From the NCBI GenBank assembly GCA_000002445.1, contig CH464491.1, positions 1,120,001 through 1,184,000 on the forward strand: DNA of 64,000 bases, in the 5' to 3' direction. Position 1 is the stretch's first letter, and each line of letters opens with the position of its first letter. The stretch is from Trypanosoma brucei (Eukaryota). Shown here piece after piece: positions 1 through 35,200 of this stretch. A program made the translations under genes and the position numbers. Below the pieces are notes generated by a model that had not been told where the DNA came from, made no database searches, and saw nothing but the letters and a program-made list of their open reading frames with translations.

Positions 1-1489
1 CCTGTGCCTTGCTGCCACGCAAAACGGATCGTGTAAAGATGGCGTTGATACAGAGTCTGGTGAGGCGAGGGGTATCAGGCCCCTAATACAGCAAGAACTT
101 GTGGACGTCGTTGATCTTGACCCGTATGGTTCCGCTTCCCCCTTCCTTGAAGGTGCTGTGCGGTGCATTAGGGAAGGGGGACTATTGCTCGTGACGAGTA
201 CTGACAGCGCTATCTTGTGTGGGAATTACCCAGACACATGTCACGCAAAATACAACACTGTACCTACGAAAAATGCTGCGTGCCACGAGATGGCAGTGCG
301 CATCCTTCTCGCTGCCGTGGAGCGTGTGGCTAATAAACACCGCAAATACATTGTTCCGTTGCTTTCTCTGCATATCGATTTCTATGTTCGTTGCTTTGTT
401 CGTGTGTACACGCAGCCGGCAGAGGTGAAGCTCAGCCCATGTAAACTGGGTTATCTCATTCAGTGCAACCACTGCCCCGCGTTTTGGGTTAGACAAATAG
501 CCGTCTCACGTATGCGGGTGAAGAAGCGGTCTCGAAAACTAGGCAATGCGGGAGAAGACGTGACTGCCGGAAGTCAAGGCAATGTGGCGAAAAGTGAGGA
601 ACATCGCCTCTCAGATTCAGGAAATGCGAGAGGCACCAACGAGGGTGGGGAGGCGCACAAGGCTGATGAATGGGGGTGGGAACGATTCCCTGCAGCTCCA
701 TCCCGCCGTGAGAATCCCAAGATAGTTTCCCCTAGTCTCCAACAAATTTTTCCATCTTCACTGCGCGGTCACTGTTGTTGTGTTTGCGGAGCATCTGTGT
801 CGCTGTCTGGCCCCATCTACGCGGCCCCGACGCAGAGTGCGCCATTTCTCGGGCAGCTATTGGTAGAGATTGAGCGGCGCGCTTCTGCTAACCATATTAC
901 CGCTGTGGCGCGTATATCGGGCCTTGTTCGTGTTGCAATGGAAGAACTAGCCGATACCCCGCTCTTTTACCAGTTGCCAGACGTCGCCTCTTTTGTACGT
1001 GTCCGTTGTCCCCCCGCCCCGCTATTTATTGGAGCCCTAGGACGCAAGGGATACCGCTGCAGTCAAGTGCATTGTGCACCGTCAGGTATCAAGACTGATT
1101 GCCCCCCGGAAATTGTGGTCGGTGTGATGATGCAATGGAAGAAGTACGAAGAGGAAAATAATGAGAGAGTTGTTGAAGGAGGAAAAGAAGAGGATGCGGT
1201 GCTTGATATCCACTCTGATCGTGTGACCTCTCCTCCCGCCATGATTGAAGGCGGGGGTTGTGGAAGCGGTGACGGAAAGAGTAATGAGAGGGGAACCAGG
1301 AAGAAAGGGAGGGTAGATCAACGCGTGCCGCTAGTGAAACCTTTATCGGATGTTGACTTCTCCTACGACAAGCAATTTGATTTCCGTGGTGCTGTCACAG
1401 GCGTGGCGAAGTTTATTCCCAACGCCCCCAACTGGGGACCGAAGCGAAAACACCAAGGGGCCATGCATTCCGCTGTCGATGCTCCATGA
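1..1489 (+). CDS. TRM1: tRNA (guanine26-N2)-dimethyltransferase (TRM1), C-terminal part; 5' end lies upstream of the window
   Basis: The frame stays open from the window edge to the stop at 1487-1489. The translation contains DLDPYGS (the TRM1 SAM-MTase motif) and a C-terminal Cys/His cluster, QCNHCPAFW, typical of TRM1. The M at 101 in the ORF track is an alternative-start artefact. Confidence 0.75.
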   Translation, partial: LCLAATQNGSCKDGVDTESGEARGIRPLIQQELVDVVDLDPYGSASPFLEGAVRCIREGGLLLVTSTDSAILCGNYPDTCHAKYNTVPTKNAACHEMAVRILLAAVERVANKHRKYIVPLLSLHIDFYVRCFVRVYTQPAEVKLSPCKLGYLIQCNHCPAFWVRQIAVSRMRVKKRSRKLGNAGEDVTAGSQGNVAKSEEHRLSDSGNARGTNEGGEAHKADEWGWERFPAAPSRRENPKIVSPSLQQIFPSSLRGHCCCVCGASVSLSGPIYAAPTQSAPFLGQLLVEIERRASANHITAVARISGLVRVAMEELADTPLFYQLPDVASFVRVRCPPAPLFIGALGRKGYRCSQVHCAPSGIKTDCPPEIVVGVMMQWKKYEEENNERVVEGGKEEDAVLDIHSDRVTSPPAMIEGGGCGSGDGKSNERGTRKKGRVDQRVPLVKPLSDVDFSYDKQFDFRGAVTGVAKFIPNAPNWGPKRKHQGAMHSAVDAP

Positions 1490-1581: not shown

Positions 1582-2655
1582 ATGTGGGGGTTCTGTAAAA
1601 TTGACAAGCAACAAAGAGAAGCACATTATGCAAATAATTATCGTCGGCCACGTGAACTCGATTTCTCTGTTGTTTGTGGCTGTTGGTGCCCCGAAAAATT
1701 ACTCACATGCACTTTCTCTTCGATTTACTTCAATGTGAAGGACACCAGACCGCTCCTCGTTGTATATATAAACAAAGGAAAGGTGGGAGTGCCGTTCCTG
1801 GTGGCACAACACTTGTCCTCTCAGCAAATGTTTTGCCGTTCCGTGAAGTGGTTTAGTGTATTTGACGCTTGTTATGTTCTTAACCTTGACCGCCGCCAGG
1901 ACCGCTGGGCACACGTACAGCAGCAGCTGTCCCGGGCGAAGTTAGAGACGTTTCTTCGACCACCGGCGAAGGTTACCCGTGTGAGTGGTGTTGATGGGCA
2001 GGCGCTAGATGTGGAAGCGCTTCATCGAAACGGCCTTGTAACAGACGTTGGATACCAACGGTTCCTGTTGCCGCTTGAGGAAAAGTTGTTTGGTATGGAT
2101 TTAACTCCCGGTGCTATCGGTTGTGCGTTGGGCCACAGAAAGATATGGGAAACTGTTGTTGAGAAGCGTCATCAGTGTGCATTGATTCTGGAAGACGATG
2201 TTGAGTTCCACCACAAGTTTCCCCGACTTTTGAGAGAAGTTTGGCCGCGTGTTCCGAGCGATTGGGGAATCGTGCATCTTGGTGGACTCGACCTGCTCGC
2301 TAGTGGGAAACCGCCAAGACCCTTTGTTGATGTGGGCGTTCGGCATGCATACAGCGGACATCGTGAGCTGACAGCTTACGTTCTTCACCACGTCGCTGCA
2401 AAGAGGTGCCTTGAGCACACACTGCCGATGACGTGGCAAGTGGACACCCATATTTGTAGCGTCGTGACGGAAGATCCGGCGGCACAAGACAGTTACATTT
2501 CTGATCCCATGACGTATGTCTTTCAGCCATCATTGGCTATTCAGATCACATCGTTCGGAACTGATGTGCAGAAGAGGCCGTCAGACAACCCCCCACTCGA
2601 AGATGCAGCGCGGCGTATGCGAGAGTTTGTAGGAGGGGGGACGTCCGTTCGCTGA
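1582..2655 (+). CDS. Glycosyltransferase family 25 (LgtB / COLGALT-like) domain protein
   Basis: The translation contains CYVLNLDRRQDRW...VSGVDGQALD...GAIGCALGHRKIW...CALILEDDVEF, which matches the Glyco_transf_25 signature. The true start is probably the internal ATG at 1828 (MFCRSVKWF). No obvious signal or TM segment. Confidence 0.65.
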   Translation: MWGFCKIDKQQREAHYANNYRRPRELDFSVVCGCWCPEKLLTCTFSSIYFNVKDTRPLLVVYINKGKVGVPFLVAQHLSSQQMFCRSVKWFSVFDACYVLNLDRRQDRWAHVQQQLSRAKLETFLRPPAKVTRVSGVDGQALDVEALHRNGLVTDVGYQRFLLPLEEKLFGMDLTPGAIGCALGHRKIWETVVEKRHQCALILEDDVEFHHKFPRLLREVWPRVPSDWGIVHLGGLDLLASGKPPRPFVDVGVRHAYSGHRELTAYVLHHVAAKRCLEHTLPMTWQVDTHICSVVTEDPAAQDSYISDPMTYVFQPSLAIQITSFGTDVQKRPSDNPPLEDAARRMREFVGGGTSVR

Positions 2656-3181: not shown

Positions 3182-6100
3182 GTGGGGAGGTGGTGCCGCA
3201 AGGTCCGTACACACTCAACGATGCCTAGTTCCAAGTCGGACAGTGGGGATCCAACGCCGGTGCAGCACCTAGCTAATGAATCGATGCAGTCCTCAGCAAC
3301 GTTAAGTGCCAGTGCCTGGGCTTCGGCGGTGAAACGTTTTGAAGGCCCAAAATCGAGTGGAAATAGTGCACCCACCGACGGCGGGAAACCCCGACACAAG
3401 GAATCTATGTTTGCTGTTAAACAGGCGACAGCACCTGAGACGATGGACCCAATAATGAGACGGCTCGAGCTCCGCTACGAACCGTTGCCGGCGGAGAGGC
3501 AGTATTCAGTTCAGTCGTCTTCACGAAAGCAACGCGGGGAACAACGATCCGATGTTGTTGACGTTTCGATGCAAGCAGTGCAGGATGAAACTGTAGCGCT
3601 GCTAACCAGGCACCTTCCCTGCATCCCGTCTACATTACCGGATGTGACAGAATGGAAAGAGGCAACCAAGTCGCAAAATGAACCTGTACTTGACGACCGC
3701 ATCACCGCACAGACGATCCACAGGTTGCTGTGCAAAGGTCATTTTCGCGACCGCAAACGACAGCTACTGAAATGCCGTTCCAAGCAAGCGATAGAGGAGT
3801 TCGACGAACTGTTACCTAGCAACGCAGTTAATGCGCTTTCCAAGCAAGTGAGTCGCTTAGAGCCGCCTTTTGTGGAAAAGATGATGGAAGCTAAGATGTA
3901 CTGTAAGCAGCAGAAAAACGATGAATCAACACCGCGGGAGGTGCACCCCGCTTCGTGCGAGGGTACCCCATTTTCGCGGGCCCCGCCGGGTTATTACCAC
4001 TCCCATCTTTCGGCACCACCACCCTCTCGATGTAGTTTTACGGCAAGCCCGAAGGGGGACTTGTCACCACTGCAAAAGCAGGCATTACCCGGGATACTCA
4101 CTGCATCGGAGGATAATTTTTCCGCGAAAATTCCTGCATCTGTGACACTAACGCTCTCCACCGCCGCAGGTGATGATCAGAGTATCGTTGACCAGGTGGT
4201 TGCTTACGCTGCGTCCAAACGTCGTCCCAGTGTTGCAGTGGTTGGTGGTGACCTTATTGAAACTAACACCCAAGGAGACCCGTATGGACACGGTTGTGAC
4301 CTTAAACTGCACCCGTCCCACAAACCCGTGTTCTCTGCACTAGATGCCGTGCTTTCCGTGAGCAAAGAATATGAGAAGGTTCAGCAGCAGTGGCCGGGGA
4401 GAAGCGCTTCCCGAATAAGTGCGGCGCGCCGCGGCATAACGGAGCGCATCACATCACTTCATTCGTCTCGCATTCCACCAGAGTTTTGGGTTTCTATTCA
4501 CCAACCAACACTTCCGGGTACTAGGCTTCTTCAGCACCCACACTTGGCAAAACGGGAACCAAGCAGCAGCGTGCCAGAGAAGACGCTGATGTTTCCTGCA
4601 GCCAATGCAACGGGCAGAGCGCAGGTTTATCTGCTTGCTGATACCCTGGACCGTATGCTTGAGGAAGGGTCGGGGGATCTTGAGGTGCTTGCAGACAAGG
4701 AACTTGCGCTCCTGCTGATCCCAGAAGAGCTAGACGACGGCAAACCTGCCGGCTTAGGGGCTGTTGGCTCCTCAGAGAAGTTCACCAATGTATGTCCACT
4801 TAAGTCTTCTGACGATGCACATGCGCAGTACATTCAGTCTGCGGAAAGGGTTATGAAAACAATCGATATAGGGCTCGCCGAATTATCTCGGCAAGTGGGA
4901 AGCTTCTGCATAGAGCGCGGTGCGCTTCTTGATTCCCTCCGAATTGTTATTAACGACCTTTCATCGAGCTGCTTCGCATTAGTGAGCTACTGTAAGGATC
5001 GCGCACGTCAAGAGCTTATGATGCGGCGTGAACTTGCTTCTGCCTCAAGCAAGGATGTGGAAATGGTCTTTGAGCTTCGGGAGCAGTTGAAAAAAGCTCA
5101 AAGTGAGGTACAAGCGTTGCGAGAAGTAAACAATGAATATGTAAAGAAGGCCCAAAAATATGATACATTGATTGAGCGGTTGATGCTAAAGGATAGCATG
5201 TTTTACAAGCACTCGGCGGACCTACATTTAAGCATGCTTATGGAACTAGAGGAAAGCTACACTGAGTCGACAAATAAAGGAATGGACGCGCTGTACCACC
5301 ACACTTCGACAAATGCAGCAGAACCCAAAGTAGCTGAGGCACCCATAATTCGCTTAGCGACTATGAAGCAGAAGGAACATCAGGAAGCGGAGAAAAAAGT
5401 ATATGAAGAGTCGTATCGTCTAATCAGCGTCTTGTCTAAAACCATGGATACCGTTGAGAAGGTCTGCCAACCGTTATACGACCACGTTGATTTGCCGAAA
5501 CACAGGTCCACTGTCAATGTTGCCTCGTCAAAGTGGGCGATGATAGCTTCCGCCGTTGGTTCTTACGAGGTAGAAAAGAAACATCGCCGGCGTGTTTTTG
5601 ATGTATTCGCCGAGTGGAATTCCTTACAGGAGCCCGTTCCTGCTTCAGCATTGCCTGACGATAAATTGAAAGATGATGAAGTGGAGAACAAAAGTCACGC
5701 CGTCGAATCCCATGCTTATTCATATTCCACCACCCCCAGAGGTTTGGAAAATACTCATAACGCTGACGCGCAAGAGGGGACCTTCACTACCGATGTGGTT
5801 ACGGCGTCGCAATGCACAGAAGTCGGACAACCTTCTTCAGCAGCGACCCGGCGGATGCGGCCCATCACTAAGGAGGATCTGGTTGCTATGGATGTGAAGG
5901 ACTGCACTGCTGAGGAAATAAATGCGCTTTACGCTGAAGATTTTGACATGGCCGCGTACCTGCACCCCGAATGGAACCCCCCAACCGACGTTGAACTGAC
6001 TCCGATGGTTCTGCGGGATATGATTCATGATGTTACGGAATCGCTTATGCATATTGCGCTTCGCATGCAAGCCCTTTCCACGAGCAGCTTCATCGAGCAG

Positions 6101-6547
6101 TGTTTGAAACCGCCGGCGATGCCACCCGCACACCCCGAAGAGCCATGTTCGCTGTGTGGGAGGAAGGACCGAAGTGCTATCGGCAAAAAGAACAGGGGCG
6201 AGGCATTACAGAAGGTGGCGAATGAGGTCCAGCGACGTTATGAAATGCTCGGGCAGAAGTGTCAACGAGCTGAGGCCGAGCGGGAGAGGCTTCGCAAAGA
6301 GCTTCAGATGCAGCAGGCACATGAGTGTAGATTAGCACGGGAGTTTGGTATGCGGGAGGAAGAACTAAAGAAGGCAAATGCAGAGCTTGCTGAGGAGAAT
6401 AATCGCAGGGGCCGGCGCAGGCGGTCGCAGATAAACACTCACGAGAGGCCACGAAGTTCTTTCATGCGTTCGTCGGTGTTGTCCGAGATGCTTAATTTAT
6501 CTGGCAGCATAGACGATGCCCCAGTGCCTGGGGAGGAAGAAAAGTAA
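3182..6547 (+). CDS. Large hypothetical protein with C-terminal coiled-coil and basic tail
   Basis: Uninterrupted 1121-codon ORF. The likely start is the ATG at 3221 (MPSSKSD), after a polyY tract at 2941-2997. There are heptad-like E/K/Q-rich stretches around 5030-5200 and 6190-6420. Confidence 0.6.
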   Translation: MGRWCRKVRTHSTMPSSKSDSGDPTPVQHLANESMQSSATLSASAWASAVKRFEGPKSSGNSAPTDGGKPRHKESMFAVKQATAPETMDPIMRRLELRYEPLPAERQYSVQSSSRKQRGEQRSDVVDVSMQAVQDETVALLTRHLPCIPSTLPDVTEWKEATKSQNEPVLDDRITAQTIHRLLCKGHFRDRKRQLLKCRSKQAIEEFDELLPSNAVNALSKQVSRLEPPFVEKMMEAKMYCKQQKNDESTPREVHPASCEGTPFSRAPPGYYHSHLSAPPPSRCSFTASPKGDLSPLQKQALPGILTASEDNFSAKIPASVTLTLSTAAGDDQSIVDQVVAYAASKRRPSVAVVGGDLIETNTQGDPYGHGCDLKLHPSHKPVFSALDAVLSVSKEYEKVQQQWPGRSASRISAARRGITERITSLHSSRIPPEFWVSIHQPTLPGTRLLQHPHLAKREPSSSVPEKTLMFPAANATGRAQVYLLADTLDRMLEEGSGDLEVLADKELALLLIPEELDDGKPAGLGAVGSSEKFTNVCPLKSSDDAHAQYIQSAERVMKTIDIGLAELSRQVGSFCIERGALLDSLRIVINDLSSSCFALVSYCKDRARQELMMRRELASASSKDVEMVFELREQLKKAQSEVQALREVNNEYVKKAQKYDTLIERLMLKDSMFYKHSADLHLSMLMELEESYTESTNKGMDALYHHTSTNAAEPKVAEAPIIRLATMKQKEHQEAEKKVYEESYRLISVLSKTMDTVEKVCQPLYDHVDLPKHRSTVNVASSKWAMIASAVGSYEVEKKHRRRVFDVFAEWNSLQEPVPASALPDDKLKDDEVENKSHAVESHAYSYSTTPRGLENTHNADAQEGTFTTDVVTASQCTEVGQPSSAATRRMRPITKEDLVAMDVKDCTAEEINALYAEDFDMAAYLHPEWNPPTDVELTPMVLRDMIHDVTESLMHIALRMQALSTSSFIEQCLKPPAMPPAHPEEPCSLCGRKDRSAIGKKNRGEALQKVANEVQRRYEMLGQKCQRAEAERERLRKELQMQQAHECRLAREFGMREEELKKANAELAEENNRRGRRRRSQINTHERPRSSFMRSSVLSEMLNLSGSIDDAPVPGEEEK

Positions 6548-10350: not shown

Positions 10351-11778
10351 CGTAGTCATATATTTTCTTCTTTCACTGTATTCTTCTGTTTTTTTTTCTT
10401 CCCTTGTTGATTCTAAGTAGTACCACTTGGTATTTGCTCCCCCTTACAATCGACATTCCCCTTTGTCGTTCGTTCCGTCCAACTGTCCCTCGGTGTTACC
10501 TTCGCTATTAGTTCCTTACTTTTCCCGCCTCCTTTAATATGAGTTGGCGCACTTTCAATTAACTGCACATTTGAAACCCATGCATTTGGAGCTGGTGAGT
10601 TGTGGGTGAGTTTGTGAAGAAGAAAGTGAGAGGGAAAGAGTGGTGTGGCGAGGCCTCATTTTTATACTAACTCATTTTTCTTGTCTTTCTCTTACCTTTA
10701 TTTCAGTTTTTAGCGATTGCTTCCAAGCACATATATATAATTATTTGTTTATTTATAATTGTGTGTGTGTGTGCTCCCGCATCTCTCTACTGAGGCGTAA
10801 AGCCATGGAGAAGTTGGGAAGGAAAAATATATTTGATTGTGTGTATGTGCGTGGGTCCGGTAAGTGAAATAAATGGATGGAAGCGGCATATCATCTGTCG
10901 ACATGTCAGTATCAAAAAAAAAAAGAGAGAGAGGAAAGCAACGGCAACCGACAGATAACGGTGAAAGTAACGAAAATATGTTTCGGGAGGAGGTAAAATA
11001 AGAAGATATAAAGATACAGATGATTAGATTAGTTAGGTAAAGGTTGAACAAAAAGAGAAAACTACGGCAATAAAAAACAAATGAGAATGAGGAGAAAGTC
11101 GGTAGTCCGTGAGTGTGTTTTGAATTCCATAGTAAGAAAGGAGGGAGAGCGGCAATCACAATCACTGTTTCCAAATAGTTTTTTTGTTGCGTTGTTGCTT
11201 TTTGTTTTTTTAAAAAAGAGAAAGCCGGTAGTTGTAATAAACAGAAAAAGAGTATGTGTTTGTAGTCTTGTTTTTTTTTGCTTTTTTACTTGCCTGTCCG
11301 CGGTGGAAAAATGGAAATGGGGCTACTTTTTTTTGTGTTTTTTTCTCTTGCCCATATCTCTGAAGTCCAGCGGGTTTGTGTTTGGTTCCGTTGAGGCTTG
11401 TAGTTTTCTTTGTTTTTTTTTTGTAATGGCTTTCTAATATATAAATATAAAAATATATATAGATAATTTTTTGTTTCTTGTTATTTCTTATTTGTGACGG
11501 TACTTTACTCTGTCATGCACCGCAGAGGAATGTTCTTTAGCCATGAGTTTTTTTCTTGTTTATTTGCGGTCATGCGACAGGAAGAACGAGAAGTTGAGGC
11601 TCGAAGAAAAGCTGATGAAAAAGCATGTGAGAAGTTTGCGCGTGCTCTTTTTGTGTGCATTTTTGCTTCCACCTCGGTTGCCGAAATAAGTGAGGGGCCG
11701 AAACTTCTTTTTTTTTTTTTGTCGCATGTACATGCGGAGAAAAGTTCAATGTAGATGAAATACATGGTGGCGCGCGTT

Positions 11779-13956: not shown

Positions 13957-14922
13957 ATGCCGCTCCCCACTGACCCGCGGGAGTGGGTGAAGAAAGTTAG
14001 GGCCAAAACACCGGTTCTGTTGGAAGTGGGGAAACCGGCCCCCAAGGCAGTATTAAGTTTTGGTGGTTGCGGTTTCCTTGTGACGTACTCGTTAGGAGTG
14101 GCCTTGTACCTCCAGCAGGAGAAGGCGGACTTATTAGCGCAGTCGTTTTTGCTAGGGGCGGGGGCGGGCGTCATTCCGGCTGTGGCGCTTGCTTGCGGTG
14201 CACGCGCCGTAAACATTGAGAAGGTGCGCGACGCCATCTTAGACAACCGCTTTATGGTAACAGATGAAGAAAGGCGGATTGAGGTACTGACCAAGTTCAT
14301 CAACCTGCTCCTTCCTCGCAATGCGGTGGAACTTGTTAGCGGGCGTCTAGCTCTTACCATTGGCTTTTCTAATCGTGACCCTGGTTACATGAAGCAGACG
14401 AAGGAGCAGATACACTTTGGGCATCATGTTGCCCAGTGGACAGATGTGAGTGACCTCGCGCAGTGTATTTTAGCCTCTATGGCGCCTAACACTGCTAAGC
14501 CTATGATATTTCGTGATGCGGATAATGTCATGCGAGGGACGATGATGTCCCTTAGCAGTGAACTCGACCAATACTGTAGACATATTTATATTCACGGATA
14601 CTGTGGTTACCCTTACAATAAACACCAAACGCGTCATAACATCTACTTTGGAAGACACGGCTTTCTCGCAAACACGTACTTTCCCTTTTGGAAGCAGGCG
14701 TTGCTGGCGTTCGCGCCGACTTTTGGTGGAGCAGCACGTCGTGAGGAACTGCTGGAGGCATACGACGCGGGATATAACGACGCAAGGCGCTATGAGCGTT
14801 GGGAGGAGGATCCTTACCATTTTTCGAAGGCAGATCGTTCACCAAGCGATGACTTTAGCTTCCGGCAGCTGCGGGCCAACCTGTTTGGTGGGAAGAAGGC
14901 AGCGGAAAGATTTGAACTGTAG
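13957..14922 (+). CDS. Patatin-like phospholipase (PNPLA) domain protein, with Gly in place of the nucleophile Ser (GAGAG)
   Basis: The N-terminus, LSFGGCGFLVTYSLGVALYL, aligns with the PNPLA oxyanion motif LSFAGCGFLGVY. The position corresponding to GASAG (GXSXG) reads LLGAGAGVIPAVALACG. A GRLALTIGF segment aligns with the PNPLA RLGISLTR block. Confidence 0.6.
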   Translation: MPLPTDPREWVKKVRAKTPVLLEVGKPAPKAVLSFGGCGFLVTYSLGVALYLQQEKADLLAQSFLLGAGAGVIPAVALACGARAVNIEKVRDAILDNRFMVTDEERRIEVLTKFINLLLPRNAVELVSGRLALTIGFSNRDPGYMKQTKEQIHFGHHVAQWTDVSDLAQCILASMAPNTAKPMIFRDADNVMRGTMMSLSSELDQYCRHIYIHGYCGYPYNKHQTRHNIYFGRHGFLANTYFPFWKQALLAFAPTFGGAARREELLEAYDAGYNDARRYERWEEDPYHFSKADRSPSDDFSFRQLRANLFGGKKAAERFEL

Positions 14923-16715: not shown

Positions 16716-18944
16716 TTGGAGAGGGGGCTCTGCCCTCGGAAGGGGAAAAAAGTTATGAATGATCGGCCACATTTTTATGAAGCACCAGACTTGATGGACG
16801 AGCACGGTGCACCCATAGTGTTTGATGATGTATATTCCGATTTATTATCTGTCGCAGTTGAAGAGAGTGCCAACGACGGATCGCGGCCCGTCTGTGGGCT
16901 AGAAGCCGTGAGACCCGTTGACAATGAGATTCACTCAGTTGCTGACGAAGGAACCGAAAGTGAGGGGAGGCACGCTCTCGACGTATTACTTTATGAGTAC
17001 GAGCACATAAGGAATGCAATGAAACGTTGTGTTCGTGCGAGTCACGAGGTGCTTCGAAACTTACAGCAAAAGCGTCATCGCATCGAACAGCAGGAACGCA
17101 CCGTGCGGCGGCGCACAGAGCTCGCATCGTCGTCAACATCTTTCCCCATATTCAAACTTAACGTGGGTGGAATGCGATTTCATGTACAACGAGAAACGTT
17201 TCTTCAGTTTGACGTGACCCTCTTTCACGTGTTGTGTAATGAACAATTCGCTGTCCAGAAGGATGAATGTGGATATGTTTTCTTCGACCGTGACCCATGG
17301 TTATTCCGTGAACTACTGTTCCTTTTACGAGAGCGGAAGCAATGCTTAGTGGAAAACGAAGTAGCCTCCCCGCTGGTACCGCCACAAGATCAACAGGGAG
17401 ATATGCAACATCACCGGCATCAGCGGCGGCCACAAGAACTGTATTCGGTAGGACAACGTAGATTGGCTGAATTGCCCCCCATTGAGCGCCAACGGCTGTT
17501 GGAAGAAGCGCGTTACTATGGTTTAAACGAACTCGTTGCGGAGCTTCTCACCAGGCAGTACGAGTGGCGGCACTGCGTATTTGGTCCTTTACCTTCCTTA
17601 GATTTAGCGCATGGATGCGACCAAGTCCAACCTCCTCTGCTCGCCAGTCCCCGTGAGTTTGAGTCGCAGCGATTAGAAGAAGGCGGACACACTCCGTTGC
17701 CGCCGCCACGATGCTGCTTTGCCTCTTCTGTCTTCCTGAATGGGAGTATTTACTTGTTCGGTGGCTTTGGCTCCGAAGGGGAAGTTATTGGGACTCTTTA
17801 TCGGTTTCAGCTGAAGCCTGGTAGTATGTGCGAGGCTGGAGCGGAGATTGAAGGAAATGATAGTGGGAGCTGTAGGGAACCGCATGGTGCCAATTCGGAC
17901 GCGAAAGGAAGACATACAAGAGCCAATGCGTGTGTTCCTGGACGCCCATTCATGTGGTATGACCTGGTTGAGCCGCATAGGGAAGGGAGGCGAGGTGTTC
18001 CACCACCACGTACCGGTCACGCTGCTGCTTCGTGGGGTAACTGCTTTGTGCTGGTGTTTTACGGTAACAACCTTTACCACCACTTGCGGGATGTTTGGAT
18101 GTACCACACTATTCAAAATGCGTGGTATGAGGTGAAAGTATGTGGGGCGGATGTTCCAGCCCGATCTGGGCATACCGTAACGGTTATGCAGGGTCGTTTT
18201 TATCTCTTCGGGGGGAAGGACCTCTTCCAGCGGGATGCCAGGTGTTTTGCGGATGTATACGAAGGGTTGTTTGACGCCGAAGGGATGGAGCTGACATGGA
18301 GATTGGCCTCTTCTTCGGGGGAAGTGCAACAGGCGGATCGGCTGCGGCAACCACTCGCCGCTTGTGATGAGAACTGTGGAGAGCCGTGCGATGCTCCCTC
18401 TGCGGCGTACCATAGTGCGGTTGAGCACAAGGGACGCTACATTATCGTGTATGGCGGTTTGCGTGATTCAGAGGGTATAACCAATGGGGAAAACCCGGGC
18501 GGCCTTCGTGGAAATATGGGTGTAGGGACTGCACCCGCTGCATATGACACAAACCTACGCTTGTACGTCTTTGATACACTTGGAGGCACATGGCAGCGTG
18601 TGCAGACACGTTGTGCCGAATCTAAGGATCAAATGGGTTCAGATATTCCTCTCACTGGTCACGTTGCCGTGCTCTGTCATGATCATATGTACGTAATGGG
18701 GTCGTATGATTGCACGCACCACCAGCGTTTGGAAGTGTTTCGGCTTTCGCTGGTGACCCTCTTGTGGTGCCGAGTGCCAACAAGCGTGGCAGTAGGTCAC
18801 ATTCCTCCTTGTAGCCGTGCCCTGCCAAGCATTGTGCTACTTCCCCCGACTGTCGAGGCACCACGTTCAGTGATAATGGTCTTTGGAGGTTATAACACTA
18901 ACACCTGTCAATACCTCAATGACTCTTACCTTATCTCATTGTGA
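16716..18944 (+). CDS. BTB/T1 (K-channel tetramerisation-like) plus Kelch beta-propeller protein
   Basis: FKLNVGGMRFHVQRETFLQFDVTLFHVL is a T1/BTB_2-like motif. There are multiple Kelch-like blades: SIYLFGGFG, GHAAASWGNCFVLVFYG, RSGHTVTVMQGRFYLFGGK, YHSAVEHKGRYIIVYGG, HMYVMGSYD and IMVFGGY. Confidence 0.6.
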   Translation: MERGLCPRKGKKVMNDRPHFYEAPDLMDEHGAPIVFDDVYSDLLSVAVEESANDGSRPVCGLEAVRPVDNEIHSVADEGTESEGRHALDVLLYEYEHIRNAMKRCVRASHEVLRNLQQKRHRIEQQERTVRRRTELASSSTSFPIFKLNVGGMRFHVQRETFLQFDVTLFHVLCNEQFAVQKDECGYVFFDRDPWLFRELLFLLRERKQCLVENEVASPLVPPQDQQGDMQHHRHQRRPQELYSVGQRRLAELPPIERQRLLEEARYYGLNELVAELLTRQYEWRHCVFGPLPSLDLAHGCDQVQPPLLASPREFESQRLEEGGHTPLPPPRCCFASSVFLNGSIYLFGGFGSEGEVIGTLYRFQLKPGSMCEAGAEIEGNDSGSCREPHGANSDAKGRHTRANACVPGRPFMWYDLVEPHREGRRGVPPPRTGHAAASWGNCFVLVFYGNNLYHHLRDVWMYHTIQNAWYEVKVCGADVPARSGHTVTVMQGRFYLFGGKDLFQRDARCFADVYEGLFDAEGMELTWRLASSSGEVQQADRLRQPLAACDENCGEPCDAPSAAYHSAVEHKGRYIIVYGGLRDSEGITNGENPGGLRGNMGVGTAPAAYDTNLRLYVFDTLGGTWQRVQTRCAESKDQMGSDIPLTGHVAVLCHDHMYVMGSYDCTHHQRLEVFRLSLVTLLWCRVPTSVAVGHIPPCSRALPSIVLLPPTVEAPRSVIMVFGGYNTNTCQYLNDSYLISL

Positions 18945-19590: not shown

Positions 19591-21780
19591 ATGGCAGCTA
19601 ACCGAAGTATATTTCTTTTTGTAGCGGAGGGATGTACACTGTGGGTACCGACACATGTACCAAATGAGAATGAGAACCAACCGGTCCACATGCTCAACTA
19701 CGCAAGTCCACGCGAACTTTCACGCTCTTTTCGCCTGTTTGATGAACCCATTCAACTTGTCGACGATCCCGTTGCCGCCGCTCGCATTAGCGGTGCCATG
19801 ACGCCAGCTGACGTAATTAAAGCTGTTAATGAGTTCCGTCGTGCATGTGCGGAGGATCATGACCTTCTCATGAAGAAGTGTTACAATTCCAATAAGCAGG
19901 TATCATCCGAGGTGCAGTTAGCTCCGCAGGCTTCTACCGGCCCAGCTCCGCAACCGCTGCTGACCAACACCATGGGTACCACAGGATCATATGGTGCTAG
20001 TCCGAATACTGGTGTTAGTACTCCCACTCCACTTACCAACCAGGCACTGCTGCTGATGATTTTGCAACAACAACAGCAACAGCAACAGCAACATCAGGCG
20101 GCAATGCTTTCTCAACCGTCGCCACTACATCAACCTCCCCCGATGAGTTTTAACAACCCATCCCTGATGGGCAGCGTCCCGCCTCCGATGGGTACTGGCG
20201 TGAATATGCCCATGGACAACCGTGGAATGGTGGCTCCACCCGTCCCTATGCCGTACGGTACACCATATTACATGATGAACCAACCGGTTTGTGGAGCTGG
20301 ACTCATGCCACCACCAATACAGTATGGTGGCTCCGCGTACGGCAAAGGTGGCCGAGGTTTAGGCAGGGGTGCCAGAGGCGGTCGCGGTGGAAACGCTCAC
20401 TGGTCGTTGTCGCCGTATGCGCGCAGCGAACCGGATCCACTGCCGCCCCTTGCCAACATACCACCGGACGTGTACGAAAACTATGTGAGAGGGGGCAGAG
20501 AACTTGTTTGTGCCACGATGCCGGGGCCACGTTGCACTGCCTGGGCACGGGAGCACACGGTGCCTACGAATAGAAGAGACACGCGCTATGTACATTGCCG
20601 GGGTGGTGTAGTGCTCATATTGAAGGCAAAGGCTTCGGATATAGAAAATAGCAAACCAGTGGAGCTCATTGATCAGCAGGTGTGCGCACACTTTGTTATT
20701 CATGGTTACTGCTCCCGCAACAACTGCATGCACCGACACTATACTGAACAGCAGTTGCGCGAGTTGATCGCCTCAAAAATTACAGAATTACGGGCTCTCA
20801 CGAAATCCCAGCGGCAGAACCTTAGCCTGGCGTTGCTCGAAAAAGAAAGAAGATCCTCTGTGGCAGCCCACGACGCGCGAGGTCTTCGTTCGGGTGGACA
20901 CGGCGAGAACAGCGGGAAGAACGATGAGGTGGTGAGGGATGCGGAGCCGTCAGTCCGTTCTCCCACTTCACCCCCAACACCACACTTGCAGTCGTTTAGT
21001 GGACATGCGGTTGCTGCTGCTGGTGGCTCTACCCATTCTGGTGGTGGGAATAACAGCAAAGCGAGGATAAGTGGCAAGTTCCTCAGCGGCGGCGTGGAGT
21101 GCGAGAGTGGCGACAGGGGACGTGGGGTCTCGAACTCTTCCCCTTCTCGACTAGAACCGGAAAAACAAGGACGTAAGCCCATGCATACGGTAGAAATTGG
21201 TGTTACAGACAGCAATAGCGATAACGGTGGCGATGACAATGACCTATTTACCGGATCGAACCGTTCCTCAACTGCCTCTGCCATGTCGGAAGGAGGTTTG
21301 GATATCTCGGTCGATAACGTTACGGCCGAGTCAAAAACGGCTCCGGACGAAATATCGGAAGCGAGCAAGGCAGCGTCACCAGCGGAGTCAAATATCCCCC
21401 CTGAGATACCCTCCGAGCTACCACAGGTTCAAGTGAATGGTATGGAAGTACCACACAATGAGGAGGGTGAGAGCGAAAACAAAGAGAGTTGTGAGAGCGG
21501 CACTAAAGAGGAGGGTGAGAAATCAGACCCCGTTCCCTCAACGTGTGCGGAGGTGAACAAGGTGCAAACAAAGGCAAGGCGGGGCCGCCGTGTTAAGGAC
21601 AGTGAGGAAAACACTGGCGAGGTCGCCGAGAATGCAGCAGAGGCAGAGGAAGCGGCTCCTGTAGGAGAGGGGGAGGAGGATACCAAGAAAGGTAAGACCA
21701 AAGGAAGTACAGCGGCTGCGAAGCGGTCCCGCTCCACCCCCTCGAAACCCTCTGCAACGAAAAAGAGGGAACGAAAATAG
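19591..21780 (+). CDS. CCCH zinc-finger (ZC3H-type) protein with polyQ and M/P/G-rich low-complexity N-half
   Basis: CAHFVIHGYCSRNNCMHRH has C-x8-C-x4-C-x3-H spacing. There is a polyQ run (QQQQQQQQQQHQ) near 20061-20096, a GRG/RGG-like stretch GGRGLGRGARGGRGG, and a Lys-rich acidic C-tail. Confidence 0.55.
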   Translation: MAANRSIFLFVAEGCTLWVPTHVPNENENQPVHMLNYASPRELSRSFRLFDEPIQLVDDPVAAARISGAMTPADVIKAVNEFRRACAEDHDLLMKKCYNSNKQVSSEVQLAPQASTGPAPQPLLTNTMGTTGSYGASPNTGVSTPTPLTNQALLLMILQQQQQQQQQHQAAMLSQPSPLHQPPPMSFNNPSLMGSVPPPMGTGVNMPMDNRGMVAPPVPMPYGTPYYMMNQPVCGAGLMPPPIQYGGSAYGKGGRGLGRGARGGRGGNAHWSLSPYARSEPDPLPPLANIPPDVYENYVRGGRELVCATMPGPRCTAWAREHTVPTNRRDTRYVHCRGGVVLILKAKASDIENSKPVELIDQQVCAHFVIHGYCSRNNCMHRHYTEQQLRELIASKITELRALTKSQRQNLSLALLEKERRSSVAAHDARGLRSGGHGENSGKNDEVVRDAEPSVRSPTSPPTPHLQSFSGHAVAAAGGSTHSGGGNNSKARISGKFLSGGVECESGDRGRGVSNSSPSRLEPEKQGRKPMHTVEIGVTDSNSDNGGDDNDLFTGSNRSSTASAMSEGGLDISVDNVTAESKTAPDEISEASKAASPAESNIPPEIPSELPQVQVNGMEVPHNEEGESENKESCESGTKEEGEKSDPVPSTCAEVNKVQTKARRGRRVKDSEENTGEVAENAAEAEEAAPVGEGEEDTKKGKTKGSTAAAKRSRSTPSKPSATKKRERK

Positions 21781-24334: not shown

Positions 24335-25891
24335 ATGTACCGACGCGCCGTTGCTGCTGCCATACCCGCCGTCACTGCCAAGAATGCACGGTCAATCTCG
24401 CAGTACAACTTTGGTCAGAAACCCCTGACTGAGTCGTGGTCACCGACTGGCCGCTCAACTCCCGCGGCAGCCGGTTCTGCTGCGCAGTCAGCTGGCATTG
24501 GTGAGGCGAAGACGACGCTACTCCCTAATGGAACCCGAATCATCACGCAGCAGCGGGGTGGTCCTGTGGTGTCAATCGGTGCCTATATTCTTGCGGGTCC
24601 TGCTTACGATCCAGTTGGCTGTCCGGGCCTTCATCATCTGATGCATACCGCACTCACGACAAGCAACTACAATAACTCACTCTTCCAACTGGACCGCAGT
24701 ATTCGCAGTACTGGTGCTTCGTTCTCTCACTTTGAGAAAGATAAGTACTACATCGGGCTTCGACTTGATGCTCGTGTTGACATGTGGAAGAGTAATACAA
24801 GCGGTGCAACAAGCGATGCGAAGCGGTTTGATCTTAACCTCTTACAAGATACAATATTCACCGCGATTTCTGCTCCAAGATTCCACGAACCGGATTTGGA
24901 GCGCTTTCGGGACACAATTGATAACAACCTGAAGGAGTTACGTTGGCAGCGCCCAGCGCAGTATGCTATTCAACAACTTGAAACCGTTGCATTTTACAAG
25001 GAGCCGCTGGGTAACCCCCGCCACGTTCCAGAGTGGAGTAACGGGCGCATTACAAGCAAGGCTTTGCTCGATCAGTATGCCAGATATGTAACTCCAGATC
25101 GTGTCGTTGTTGCCGGTGTCAATATGGAGCACGATGAACTCGTCGCCGAGTATGAAAGCAACCCATATCCGCATTCTAGCAACGCCCCGCACCACGCCGC
25201 GTTTGCCAAGGGTCTGGGCAAACCTGCTTTTGACATCACGAATGAACACTCCCAGTACAGCGGCGGTGAACTCCACGAACACGAAGACCGGCCAAAGGAA
25301 ATGTGTACGAAACCAGATATGGACACCGAGACCGCCATTGCAGTCGGTTATCTTGCGTTTGGTCGCTCCAAAACGTCCTTGCAGCGCTATGTGGCCACTC
25401 TTGTTTACCAACAGCTGTTCAACATAGTCATCCACGACAGTTTACGCTACGAGCAAGATGTCGTGCTGGACGGTGTGCGATCGTTTTACCTACCGTATCA
25501 CTCTGCTGGACTTGTGGGATTCACCGCTATAACCTCGCCAGAAAATGCTGTGCCGCTGGTTAAAGCGACAATGAAGGGCATTCAGAACGTGAAATTTGAT
25601 AATGCAGCACTATTGGAAGCAGCCAAGCACCGCGCTGCGGTTGAACTAACAAGTCAGTGCTGGGATTCGTCTCGCGACATATGTGACTATCTGGGCACAA
25701 GTTTGTCTCTTGACGCCAAGGCTTCCAACTCAACACAATACTTAAATCCCTCAGAGGTGCTAGCGGCTGTTCGCAACGTCACAGCCAGTGAGTTGAAAGA
25801 AGTGAAAGAGTGCATGATGGGCTCAAAACCCTCACTGTTTGGGCACGGGGAGATGTTGGCCTTCCCTTCACTCCGTCAGTTGGGAGCGTAA
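24335..25891 (+). CDS. Peptidase M16-family protein without catalytic motif (MPP alpha-subunit-like), with a probable mitochondrial presequence
   Basis: TLLPNGTRIITQQ...SIGAYILAGPAYDPVGCPGLHHLMHTAL aligns with the M16 N-terminal block (LPNGLRV...GxAHFLEHM), but the HxxEH zinc motif is degenerate (HHLMH). The N-terminus MYRRAVAAAIPAVTAKNARS is R/A-rich. Confidence 0.55.
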   Translation: MYRRAVAAAIPAVTAKNARSISQYNFGQKPLTESWSPTGRSTPAAAGSAAQSAGIGEAKTTLLPNGTRIITQQRGGPVVSIGAYILAGPAYDPVGCPGLHHLMHTALTTSNYNNSLFQLDRSIRSTGASFSHFEKDKYYIGLRLDARVDMWKSNTSGATSDAKRFDLNLLQDTIFTAISAPRFHEPDLERFRDTIDNNLKELRWQRPAQYAIQQLETVAFYKEPLGNPRHVPEWSNGRITSKALLDQYARYVTPDRVVVAGVNMEHDELVAEYESNPYPHSSNAPHHAAFAKGLGKPAFDITNEHSQYSGGELHEHEDRPKEMCTKPDMDTETAIAVGYLAFGRSKTSLQRYVATLVYQQLFNIVIHDSLRYEQDVVLDGVRSFYLPYHSAGLVGFTAITSPENAVPLVKATMKGIQNVKFDNAALLEAAKHRAAVELTSQCWDSSRDICDYLGTSLSLDAKASNSTQYLNPSEVLAAVRNVTASELKEVKECMMGSKPSLFGHGEMLAFPSLRQLGA

Positions 25892-32287: not shown

Positions 32288-35200
32288 ATGGTCAACCAAA
32301 CAGCGGGCGAGGAGGCGCGTGTGTTTGTCAACAATCAGAACACACGCGTTGCTACCGTTACACTTCCGACGCTTACAAAGCGGTCGGGTGGACGAGCACT
32401 CGATGGGGCAACCGATAATTCGGATAGCGATGGAAGTCGAGAAGATATGAGGGATCTAAATGGCTATCAAACTCTTAAGAATGCGGGAAAGACATTGTCG
32501 TCGAAAGACGTACATCCGCGGTTGGAGGGTGTCTACCATCGGGTGATGCGACAATTACAATGGCGTGCAAATTACGGTAGTGTAGGAACCCCCCCGCTAG
32601 GCATTCGCTTGGGTGTAGAGAGTGATAAGGACTCTAAGGTACCTGAGAGAACTTTTGAACAAGAGGAGTTAATGAACTCCAACATGTCACTTACCTCCAC
32701 CTTGTTACCTGAAGCAACCCCAAGTTTGGTGAAGAAGCGGCCATCATCGCAGTCAGTAGGGAAAAACCTTATATTGTCCAGTCCAATGAAGGGTGACGAG
32801 GGTGACGAGGGTGCCTTACTCGCACAGCAGCCCTGCCCAAAGACGTTGCGTCTCATCGTGGAGGAGGTCACAAATACTATTGTGGAGAAGTTAAAAATAG
32901 CACAAATAGGTTCAATCAAATCATGTCTCTGCCAGGTTTTCGAGAGTCGTGCACTATTAGACCGGTTGTTGAAGGAGATACCGTCCTATTCGCAGTTCCA
33001 AGGTGATGGGGAACGATTACTGACCCCTATGAAACTTCAGGAACTCTATCAAGAGTTCCGTAAACAGCCAACCGTGTTGCCTAACGCATGTTACGTACGG
33101 GATCCAGTAAATGGGTCCGTACTTGCTTGCACAGGGGACATGTGTGCTGCGGCCAATGACCCTGAGGTACCACCTGTAGATGAGCAGCCAGTTCCTCAGC
33201 AACAAGAACAAGTGGCAGAACAACCGAAAACTCTTATGTCTTCCCAGTTTACACTTTGTCAACAGTCTGTTTCGCTCACAGGAACTTGGGTGGGTTCAGA
33301 AGCGAAGAAACCTCTTCAGATGAACTTCGCTGAAGCTGCCATTCCCGCAACTTATGGAAAAAGCAGCAGGATTCCGCAAAACGTTGAATCCCCTTCAAAA
33401 AACAAAGCCCCTGACATGAAGCTTAAGTTTGCACCCCGACCCGCAGCGATTGTGACGTCTGGAAGCATACAGCAGGACCTTAGCAGCGAGGTATCCACCG
33501 TAGGACGGGAGGGGGGTGACCTTACGAGGGAACACTCCGCTCCCACCTCTTCGTCAAGAAGCCACTGCACATCGAAACTTGACACGCAGTATGCTCCACT
33601 ATCTGGCGGTGGTAAACCAAAAGAGTTATCAGAAGTTGCGAAATGTCACCAGGAAACACGGTACGTATCTGTTGGGGTCGTCACAGATAGCAATAGCACA
33701 ACTACGGTGACATGCGAAAAGTATGACGAGCTTGTGAGATATGTAGAGAGTCTCCACGTTGATATTGAGGAGAAGAAGCGAGAAATAAAATTGCTAAAGG
33801 AGGAACTGAGTGAAGAACAACAGTACACCTCTCGCAAGAAGAAAGTGGTACAATACCTGCGCGAAACACTTTACAGGGAGTGCTCAGCCTTGCGTTCACA
33901 ACTTACCATAGTACAACAAAAACAAATACAATATCAGACTGCACTGAAGGATCAGCAGCGGTCCTTGACGGGGATGCAGGCGTCACCCATATATTTTCAG
34001 TCACCAGCGGGTGTGTGCGGCGGGGATCGAAAGCGGAACAATAGCTTCTCTCGGGGTGAGTTTTGGCGACCACCCTCCTCTGGGGTGTCAAGGCCGGGTG
34101 CATACGAGAGTTCTCGTGGGCTGAACAACAGCGCAAGTGATCTCACGCGTCGTCCGACCCCGGGTTCGGCACAAAGTCACAGGCGACATGGAACGCACAG
34201 CGATGAAAACGACGAAAATGCCTCAGTAGACGACCCGTCCACTGACATTGGAAGTAGTTACACAACTCGAAACATGAACGCCTACGATGGTCGCGGTGGT
34301 GGGCTGAACAGGTCTATGAGTATGACCCGTGACGTAATATCCATTGACTGCACAGCCGTTCAGAGTCTTCTCGACCTTGTCCTGCTGGCGGTGGAAAATG
34401 ATCAAGTACTTCCTGCTTCTGCATCAAAGGCAAGGAACGCGAACATGGAAATCATTGGGAAGGCAATGGTTACCGATCCGGAAACTTCTGAGAGAAGAGC
34501 ACGGAAGCATTTTGAGCTCGTGCAGCGGAAGATGAAGGAGAACTACGCGCGAAGTCGAGGGGAATTATTGGCTGCACTCAACACAAAGGAGAGGGAGATA
34601 ACGAAGATAAAAAATGCAACGGACAAGCAGTATTTGGAAAAGTTTCTGAGGGAACAAGTTGACGAACTGAGAAGTAGCTACCGCCGCATTCGCAGGGCCA
34701 CGGTTGAAAATTTGAGTGAACTATGGAATTCTGTGTATTTAATGATGGATGGTATCCTCAACAGGGCCACCGTTGTAGATGCCTCTCTACGGGACAATGA
34801 AAAGCTTTATACTTCCTTTACCGCTTTGCAAGATCTTGTCTCCGCTGGCACCAGCCTAATTGGTCCAATGCTCACCACTGAGTACGGTAGGGGTTATCAT
34901 CCATGGCCGCTGAAGTTGCGCAACACTAGCGAACCATTTCGCGTTATGCTTCGCGCGCGCTACGGTGAAACGCAACTACAGCCCATACATGAGGAAATGA
35001 GTGCGTTTAATGACCTCTATGTGAATGCGCATCAGTACGTCACGCGGAATCACGTGGTTCCGCAACTGAAGCGTCCGGCCGTTGGACCAACCTTACGGCA
35101 GCTCTGTGCACTACTGGTGTTGAACTCCGCGACAACAAATGAGGTATGGCAGCAAGTAAGCGAGAAGTATGGTCGTGAAAAGAATCTACAGCGCCATATT

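Follow-up and report, generated by a model that had tools for sequence, protein, structure and literature searches.

Tb927.11.3900 of Trypanosoma brucei, an anchor-free mitochondrial GT25-family protein and a probable glycosyltransferase with a non-collagen acceptor

Glycosylation inside mitochondria is very rare. The DNA examined in the present study is a stretch of 64,000 nucleotides from Trypanosoma brucei (assembly GCA_000002445.1, contig CH464491.1, positions 1,120,001 to 1,184,000 of the forward strand), which is referred to below as the window. An open reading frame (ORF) at 1582-2655 on the + strand, with an ATG start and 357 residues, resembles GT25-family glycosyltransferases and has no apparent membrane anchor. 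This locus raises the question of where such a protein works, whether it is an active enzyme, and from where its gene was derived. We consider it probable that this gene, Tb927.11.3900, encodes TbGTX, a soluble mitochondrial GT25 protein with a GT-A fold that transfers a hexose from a uridine diphosphate (UDP) sugar, with inversion, to an acceptor other than collagen. Residues are numbered below on a 275-residue product that almost certainly starts at Met83 of the ORF (window position 1828).

The ORF translation was identical to XP_828469.1/Tb11.02.1400 of T. brucei brucei TREU927, and it shared 99% identity with its T. b. gambiense counterpart. Tb11.02.1400 is Tb927.11.3900 (UniProt Q386C4), which is named 'glycosyltransferase family-like protein, putative' in the supplementary tables of Peikert et al. 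(2017, PMC5436138). Therefore, the window belongs to T. brucei chromosome 11.

The assignment to CAZy family GT25 is clear. A preliminary description, made from the letters alone, had recognized a GT25 signature, and NLDRRQDRW, GAIGCALGH, and ILEDD were all present. The Glyco_transf_25 profile (PF01755) matched with 69 bits (E 6.4e-19) versus a gathering cutoff of 24, and Pfam revealed no other glycosyltransferase family in the ORF at E <= 0.1. Since only positions 3-112 of the 199 in this profile were aligned, the C-terminal half diverges from the sequences in the Pfam seed. In a phmmer comparison with solved structures, human COLGALT1 ranked first through its GT25 domain (E 2.4e-11), and matches to mimivirus R655 and to a GT25 protein from a bacterium were also obtained. 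A profile of the clade scored 121 bits with COLGALT1 (E 4e-34), 81 bits with R655, and 50 bits with the bacterial structure, the weakest of the GT25 matches in the PDB. AlphaFold2, run on an alignment of 80 sequences, gave a model with a predicted local distance difference test score (pLDDT) of 92.7 and a predicted template modeling score (pTM) of 0.91. The predicted fold is of the GT-A (Rossmann-like) type and resembles solved GT25 structures: in Foldseek searches against the PDB, the top 18 matches were all GT25 proteins, namely, R655 (E 3e-14), COLGALT1 (E ~1e-13, TM-score ~0.6), and a bacterial beta-1,4-galactosyltransferase (E ~1e-8, TM-score 0.43-0.48), followed by GT13 GnT-I.

The gene is already known: it is annotated, it has been experimentally detected and localized, and a review treats its product as a possible contributor to glycan synthesis in the mitochondrion. 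That review describes two mitochondrial GT25 enzymes of T. brucei, TbGTX and TbGTZ, whose functions are unknown and neither of which has been biochemically characterized (Duncan & Ferguson 2022, PMC9472816). TbGTX is listed in the importome of Peikert et al. (2017), and B. saltans (Bodo saltans) has an orthologue of GTX and none of GTZ (PMC9472816). Since Tb927.11.3900 is in this importome and has a B. saltans orthologue, it is almost certainly TbGTX. The B. saltans protein, also named 'glycosyltransferase family-like protein' (P0022), was 67% identical to it. The preliminary description had stated that no characterized trypanosomatid member was known. This holds for biochemistry; however, the gene itself had been noticed before (PMC5436138, PMC9472816). 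Our full-text literature search for TbGTX and kinetoplastid GT25 proteins returned only the 2022 review, and GT25 was not mentioned in the papers on the fucosyltransferases TbFUT1 and LmjFUT1.

A second kinetoplastid GT25 paralogue, annotated as 'glycosyl transferase-like protein' with approximately 285-300 residues, was observed in T. rangeli and Leishmania, and a further sequence of this type is labeled Tbor, which we take to be Trypanoplasma borreli. In T. brucei, Tb927.11.9990 is presumably TbGTZ, as judged by its matching name and its size of 34.3 kDa. It decreased to 0.57-fold in whole cells upon RNA interference (RNAi) against ATOM40 (PMC5436138, Supplementary Data 3).

The origin of the gene was examined using its relatives. 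The preliminary description had considered horizontal acquisition. Orthologues, which it had proposed to look for across Kinetoplastea, were present in Trypanosoma, Leishmania, Leptomonas, Phytomonas, Bodo, Neobodo, Perkinsela, and a sequence labeled PhM_4, at 45-79% identity. Identity was 70% between Trypanosoma and Leishmania and 45% to Perkinsela, which argues for strong purifying selection. GC content at third codon positions (GC3) was 0.51, inside the range of neighboring genes (0.46-0.59), and carried no foreign signal. Recent horizontal transfer is not supported because GC3 is native and orthologues occur throughout Kinetoplastea; moreover, the nearest relatives outside this group are eukaryotic.

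An exhaustive phmmer search yielded 27 representatives below E 1e-30. Those outside GTX were the GTZ-type kinetoplastid paralogue and sequences from Symbiodiniaceae dinoflagellates, a chlorarachniophyte, and protist transcriptomes; metazoan COLGALT proteins were absent from the top 150 representatives. On one common scale, with the 275-residue protein as the query, GTX orthologues scored 230-500 bits and an intermediate tier scored 116-166 bits. We had taken this tier to consist entirely of non-kinetoplastid protists and rejected this view because part of it is the GTZ-type paralogue. Proteins from giant-virus metagenome-assembled genomes (GVMAGs) scored 42-88 bits, often with near full-length alignments, and human COLGALT1 scored 46 bits. 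The best matches in 185,579 bacterial and archaeal species genomes reached 41 bits or less, mostly over the N-terminal half (residues ~16-152), in a scan that started from a single seed pattern and thus gives a lower bound.

A neighbor-joining tree (Kimura distances, 75 sequences, 235 columns, 100 bootstraps) placed the B. saltans protein inside a GTX clade with 100% support. Bootstrap values were 80% for GTX with dinoflagellate-type proteins, 98% when GTZ was added, and 91% for this last group, with Amorphochlora, plus one giant-virus protein (L021). The deeper nodes, which involve COLGALT1, other viruses, and bacteria, were unresolved (8-19%). GTX thus fell in a eukaryotic group, against the horizontal acquisition that the preliminary description had raised. 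The review uses the phrase 'mitochondrial GTs of bacterial origin' and derives GTZ from a GTX duplication in parasitic kinetoplastids (PMC9472816). At the level of a neighbor-joining tree, neither a specifically bacterial origin nor a simple GTX-to-GTZ duplication within parasitic kinetoplastids appears to be supported. A gain of the gene from bacteria by horizontal transfer would fit the abundance of GT25 in bacteria, where it includes lipooligosaccharide and lipopolysaccharide (LOS/LPS) enzymes, and the patchy eukaryotic distribution (kinetoplastids, dinoflagellates, and a chlorarachniophyte), and the poorly supported deep nodes leave room for an ancient bacterial source. However, the native GC3, the kinetoplastid-wide orthologues, the higher scores of protists than of bacteria, the ranking of the clade profile with the bacterial structure last, and the 98% group all oppose it. 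We regard this transfer as unlikely.

Several observations on these relatives may be added. Among the closest homologues outside the kinetoplastid/dinoflagellate-type clade was a protein (P0079) with 29-31% identity and a C-terminal transmembrane segment, encoded at 4714-5634 of JGI contig Ga0671487_0000392 (L001). This contig is compact and also carries genes for a mitochondrial carrier, asparagine synthase, DnaJ, deoxycytidine monophosphate deaminase, and an M20 peptidase, a combination that typifies giant viruses (Imitervirales-like). IMG/VR yielded over 350 GT25 relatives, and many of these sit on GVMAG contigs. The dinoflagellate-type members P0076, P0077, P0133, P0135, P0136, P0129, and P0271 are proteins of 530-1210 residues that are fused to extra domains and have an N-terminal transmembrane segment or long extensions; a C-terminal module ending in EGIRVWYT is conserved in P0076 and P0077.

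Residue roles in UDP and Mn2+ binding, catalysis, and acceptor binding have been defined experimentally in human GLT25D1 (COLGALT1), and mutagenesis showed that R354, D436, D437, S569, and D522 are essential for catalysis or UDP-Mn2+ binding (PMC12987934). We mapped these positions by a sequence alignment including the human domain, not by coordinate superposition. For the human protein, the C-terminal 105 residues were accepted only on the ground that they match each of the 20 residue positions cited in PMC12987934 and a full length of 622 residues. Twelve GTX and 12 GTZ orthologues were compared, and invariance was scored in the 80-sequence alignment.

The donor side was well preserved. In the NLDRRQDRW motif (residues 19-27, window 1882-1908, +), L20, R23, and R26 correspond to COLGALT1 L348, R351, and R354, which stack on uracil and contact the pyrophosphate; L20 and R23 occurred in 12/12 GTX, and R26 was Arg in 11 and Lys in one. 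G57 corresponds to G377 and is conserved in GTX. In GAIGCALGH (residues 95-103, 2110-2136, +), C99 matches the uracil-stacking C412, and G95, G98, and H103 were invariant across the 80 sequences. ILEDD (residues 120-124, 2185-2199, +) supplies D123, the counterpart of the ribose-binding D436, and D124, that of the Mn2+ ligand D437; E122-D123-D124 was invariant, viral and bacterial groups included. The catalytic base D522 is matched by D206 in WQVDTH (residues 203-208, 2434-2451, +), which was likewise invariant. FGTDVQK (residues 243-249, 2554-2574, +) corresponds to the lid loop S569-D570-T571 that clamps the pyrophosphate, and S569 was conservatively replaced by T245 in 12/12 GTX. This motif is common to GTZ, dinoflagellate-type, and giant-virus proteins. 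Donor-side and catalytic residues were therefore kept or conservatively replaced in all 12 GTX orthologues.

The collagen cleft was different. K470 is replaced by L154, W495 by E180, E523 (the anchor of the hydroxylysine amine) by T207, and Y561 by S242, and Y494 and T562 fall in gaps. The segment GHRELTAY (residues 177-184, 2356-2379, +), with an invariant R179-E180, occupies the site of the collagen-binding 'YW' motif (Y494/W495). Since the collagen acceptor-site residues are replaced, the acceptor is unlikely to be a collagen-type hydroxylysine. At the W495-equivalent position, Glu was found in 12/12 GTX, whereas Thr was found in 12/12 GTZ, which suggests that the two use different acceptors. 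A GTX-specific C-terminal tail, LEDAARRMREFVGGGTSVR (residues 257-275, 2596-2652, +), was strongly conserved from Perkinsela to Trypanosoma, with the pattern DA.RR[MIL]REF..G.TS[VL]R; none of the GTZ, dinoflagellate, viral, bacterial, or human GT25 proteins carries it. In GTZ-type proteins a different tail, EE..RC.AAGW, is conserved. The AlphaFold2 model predicts a helix at residues 255-268.

On this residue comparison, we predict that Tb927.11.3900 is active as an inverting, Mn2+-dependent UDP-hexose transferase and that it acts on something other than a collagen-like acceptor. A pseudoenzyme with a non-catalytic role is very unlikely. In favor of this role, no activity is reported in the literature searched, the lid-loop T571 is replaced by V247, the GTX-specific tail could be a protein-interaction element, and CERCAM is among the human homologues of Tb927.11.3900. 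However, R26, D123, D124, T245, and D206 were kept or conservatively replaced in 12/12 orthologues, from the deep-branching Perkinsela and PhM_4 lineages to Trypanosoma. Residues defined by mutagenesis would be retained in this way only under selection for catalysis.

The preliminary description had noted the absence of a signal-anchor and proposed a cytosolic or mitochondrial activity. No transmembrane segment was found: the maximum Kyte-Doolittle mean over 19 residues was 1.31 for the whole ORF, inside the upstream extension, and 0.85 for the 275-residue core, both below the transmembrane threshold. The 275-residue protein also lacks a signal peptide and an xDEL motif. Its N terminus is a basic leader, MFCRSVKWFSV (residues 1-11, 1828-1860, +), and the first beta-strand of the GT-A fold begins just after it, at residue 14 of the model. 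Leaders of orthologues had 10-26 residues of the M-[LF]-R type, rich in Arg and with almost no acidic residues. We infer that MFCRSVKWFSV acts as a short mitochondrial presequence.

Import data decide between the two compartments. Tb927.11.3900 was detected in gradient-purified mitochondria with 46.5% coverage, decreased to 0.515-fold in 4/4 replicates upon ATOM40 RNAi (p = 0.018), and was positive in TargetP (PMC5436138, Supplementary Data 6). No other entry in the ATOM40 importome candidate table is named as a 'glycosyltransferase' (PMC5436138). TbGTX and TbGTZ were also mitochondrial by C-terminal tagging, both in a genome-wide study with green fluorescent protein and in the review authors' own epitope tagging (PMC9472816). 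The import of Tb927.11.3900 is thus ATOM40-dependent; of the two proposed compartments the mitochondrion stands, and the cytosol is contradicted. A mainly extramitochondrial enzyme (in the cytosol, nucleus, or secretory pathway), with the mitochondrial signal as a minor pool or an artefact, would agree with the modest ATOM40 effect (the strongest entries in the table fell below 0.1-fold), with a non-significant ratio of ~0.92 in organelle-enriched fractions, and with a very short leader that MitoFates did not recognize as a presequence (PMC5436138). However, the significant drop in every replicate, the coverage in purified mitochondria, the two tagging approaches, the conserved leader, and the absence of a signal peptide or anchor make this highly improbable.

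Transmembrane anchors were N- or C-terminal in nearly all giant-virus relatives and N-terminal in several dinoflagellate-type proteins, and were found in none of the GTX and GTZ proteins. The lack of an anchor together with a short basic leader therefore looks like a derived, kinetoplastid-specific re-targeting.

The product is almost certainly encoded by 1828-2655 (+; 275 codons and a stop) as a single-domain GT25 protein. Kinetoplastid orthologues were mostly ~275 residues long (265-313 among apparently full-length sequences), and all those sampled had an M-[LF]-R start at the position of Met83. The T. equiperdum annotation has 275 residues. The mass given for Tb927.11.3900 in proteomics tables based on TriTrypDB 8.1, 31.198 kDa (PMC5436138), agreed with that computed for 275 residues (31,198.4 Da) and not for 357 residues (40,753 Da). 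The AlphaFold2 model was also consistent with these limits. The first 82 codons (1582-1827, +), an in-frame extension in the 357-residue GenBank models of T. b. brucei and T. b. gambiense, are very probably untranslated and probably 5' untranslated region (UTR) or intergenic sequence. A pyrimidine-rich tract at ~1711-1731 is followed by AG within the extension, with no ATG between this AG and 1828, which is only suggestive of a downstream start. The open frame in the preliminary description was real, and its start was placed 82 codons too far upstream. That the 357-residue ORF is the real product, with its first 82 residues as a T. brucei-specific targeting or regulatory domain, is scarcely credible: the frame is open from 1582, the two GenBank records annotate 357 residues, and the extension has a weakly positive codon-usage log-odds of 0.042, close to the minimum in the core, where windows of 82 codons gave 0.023-0.218; however, the extension is Cys/Trp-rich without a recognizable domain and was absent from every sampled orthologue sequence, in addition to the T. 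equiperdum annotation and the TriTrypDB mass.

Some points weigh against the reading of Tb927.11.3900 as TbGTX, an active mitochondrial UDP-hexose transferase, besides the MitoFates result and the valine at position 247. The equation with TbGTX relies on two indirect criteria because the review text gives no gene identifiers. The literature searched contains no report of enzymatic activity, donor, or acceptor for this protein or its orthologues. The essentiality of TbGTX and TbGTZ in bloodstream forms by RNAi is cited as unpublished (PMC9472816), and the reading requires a route for UDP-sugars into the mitochondrial matrix. We nevertheless consider this reading probable.

According to this reading, the nuclear-encoded, soluble enzyme, directed by its short Arg-rich leader, would enter the single mitochondrion by way of the ATOM40 pore. 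D123 and D124 would hold the UDP ribose and the metal (Mn2+), R23, R26, and the lid loop with T245 would hold the pyrophosphate, and D206 would deprotonate the acceptor hydroxyl. A hexose, galactose (Gal) or glucose by family precedent, may then pass from the UDP-sugar in beta linkage. In the working hypothesis of the literature, TbGTX and TbGTZ would build a structure of the type Gal-beta-1,3-N-acetylglucosamine (GlcNAc) on mitochondrial acceptors, which the essential mitochondrial fucosyltransferase TbFUT1 would then cap (PMC9472816). We tentatively propose a wider scenario, which is possible and, in our view, rather doubtful: GTX may derive from a protist/giant-virus GT25 lineage, may have been re-targeted to the mitochondrion by losing its anchor and gaining a presequence of ~10 residues, and may start or extend a kinetoplastid-specific glycan on a non-collagen acceptor, possibly as protein O-glycosylation, that TbFUT1 then fucosylates. 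If this is true, Tb927.11.3900 would be an entry point to an essential mitochondrial glycoconjugate.

The GT25 enzymes, which the endosymbiont Perkinsela retains in spite of its reduction, are obvious candidates for building the natural substrate of TbFUT1/LmjFUT1. As their acceptor sites consist of other residues than that of the human GT25 enzyme, they may be of interest as drug targets. The initial observation added nothing to what the field of trypanosome glycobiology had already flagged. The present study adds a corrected start codon for the 357-residue GenBank model, a residue-level prediction of catalytic competence and of a non-collagen acceptor that may differ between GTX and GTZ, and evidence that places dinoflagellate-type and giant-virus proteins, and not the LOS enzymes of bacteria, closest to this protein.

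Tb927.11.3900 sits in a + strand polycistron, downstream of a gene at 101-1489 (+) for a TRM1-type N2,N2-dimethylguanosine tRNA methyltransferase (PF02005, E 7.6e-71). This gene is cut by the window start because the PF02005 match begins at profile position 122. Further downstream in the same polycistron are a patatin-like phospholipase (13957-14919), a BTB/Kelch-repeat protein (16755-18941), and an M16-family (insulinase/mitochondrial processing peptidase-like) peptidase homologue (24335-25888), all on the + strand. Several large ORFs (3182-6547, 19591-21777, and 32288-35719) are without a Pfam match. An AT-rich stretch between + strand genes at 10501-11500 (GC content 0.33-0.40, strongly positive GC skew of 0.23-0.35) is probably intergenic or UTR. 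A tblastn search found no second GT25 copy within the window. An antisense ORF at 2101-2487 (-; 128 residues, TTG start) lies inside the GT25 coding sequence of the + strand polycistron; it had no support, is most likely spurious, and was rejected.

Compared with known systems, Tb927.11.3900 agrees with TbGTX in organism, CAZy family, ATOM40 importome listing, and the B. saltans orthologue. The review (PMC9472816) and our neighbor-joining tree differ on its relationships: GTX groups with dinoflagellate-type proteins, not with GTZ, and a GTZ-type protein is present in the sequence labeled Tbor. The GTZ-type paralogue is likewise a single-domain GT25 protein that lacks transmembrane segments, begins with a basic leader, and keeps the donor and catalytic residues of GTX, and it lies within the clade supported at 98%. 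Unlike GTX, it has Thr and not Glu at the W495-equivalent position and the tail EE..RC.AAGW, and no B. saltans member was seen; identity between the two is ~36-40%.

The GT25 domain of COLGALT1/GLT25D1 (PDB 9evj, 8zgc, 9u7h) has L348, R351, R354, G377, C412, D436, D437, and D522 identical in Tb927.11.3900, and the same inverting Mn2+/UDP-sugar mechanism is expected. However, COLGALT1 works in the endoplasmic reticulum (ER) and has an N-terminal GT2-like domain, an ER signal peptide, and RDEL, whereas the mitochondrial Tb927.11.3900 is a single domain without any of the three, and the acceptor residues of COLGALT1 are replaced or deleted in it. It thus has neither the two-lobe architecture nor the acceptor cleft of the collagen galactosyltransferase subfamily. 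Giant-virus GT25 proteins (mimivirus R655, PDB 9crz, and hundreds of GVMAG homologues) are single domains of similar size with the TD[IV]Q lid motif found in GTX, at 25-32% identity; unlike GTX, nearly all are anchored in the membrane. Bacterial LOS/LPS enzymes of the LgtB/Lic2A type, including the beta-1,4-galactosyltransferase structures 8xc8 and 8xlz, belong to the same Pfam family, contain the EDD and GCxxSH motifs, and are likewise soluble single-domain proteins. They were the most distant group compared in profile score and TM-score, and the closest affinity of Tb927.11.3900 is not with them. Lastly, TbFUT1/LmjFUT1 (PMC8439653; bioRxiv 10.1101/2021.05.10.443387) provide the precedent of an essential, anchor-free mitochondrial glycosyltransferase with an N-terminal targeting peptide. 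They differ from Tb927.11.3900 in belonging to GT11, in using guanosine diphosphate-fucose as the donor, and in having an activity shown in vitro, and the GT25 enzymes have been proposed to act before TbFUT1 (PMC9472816).

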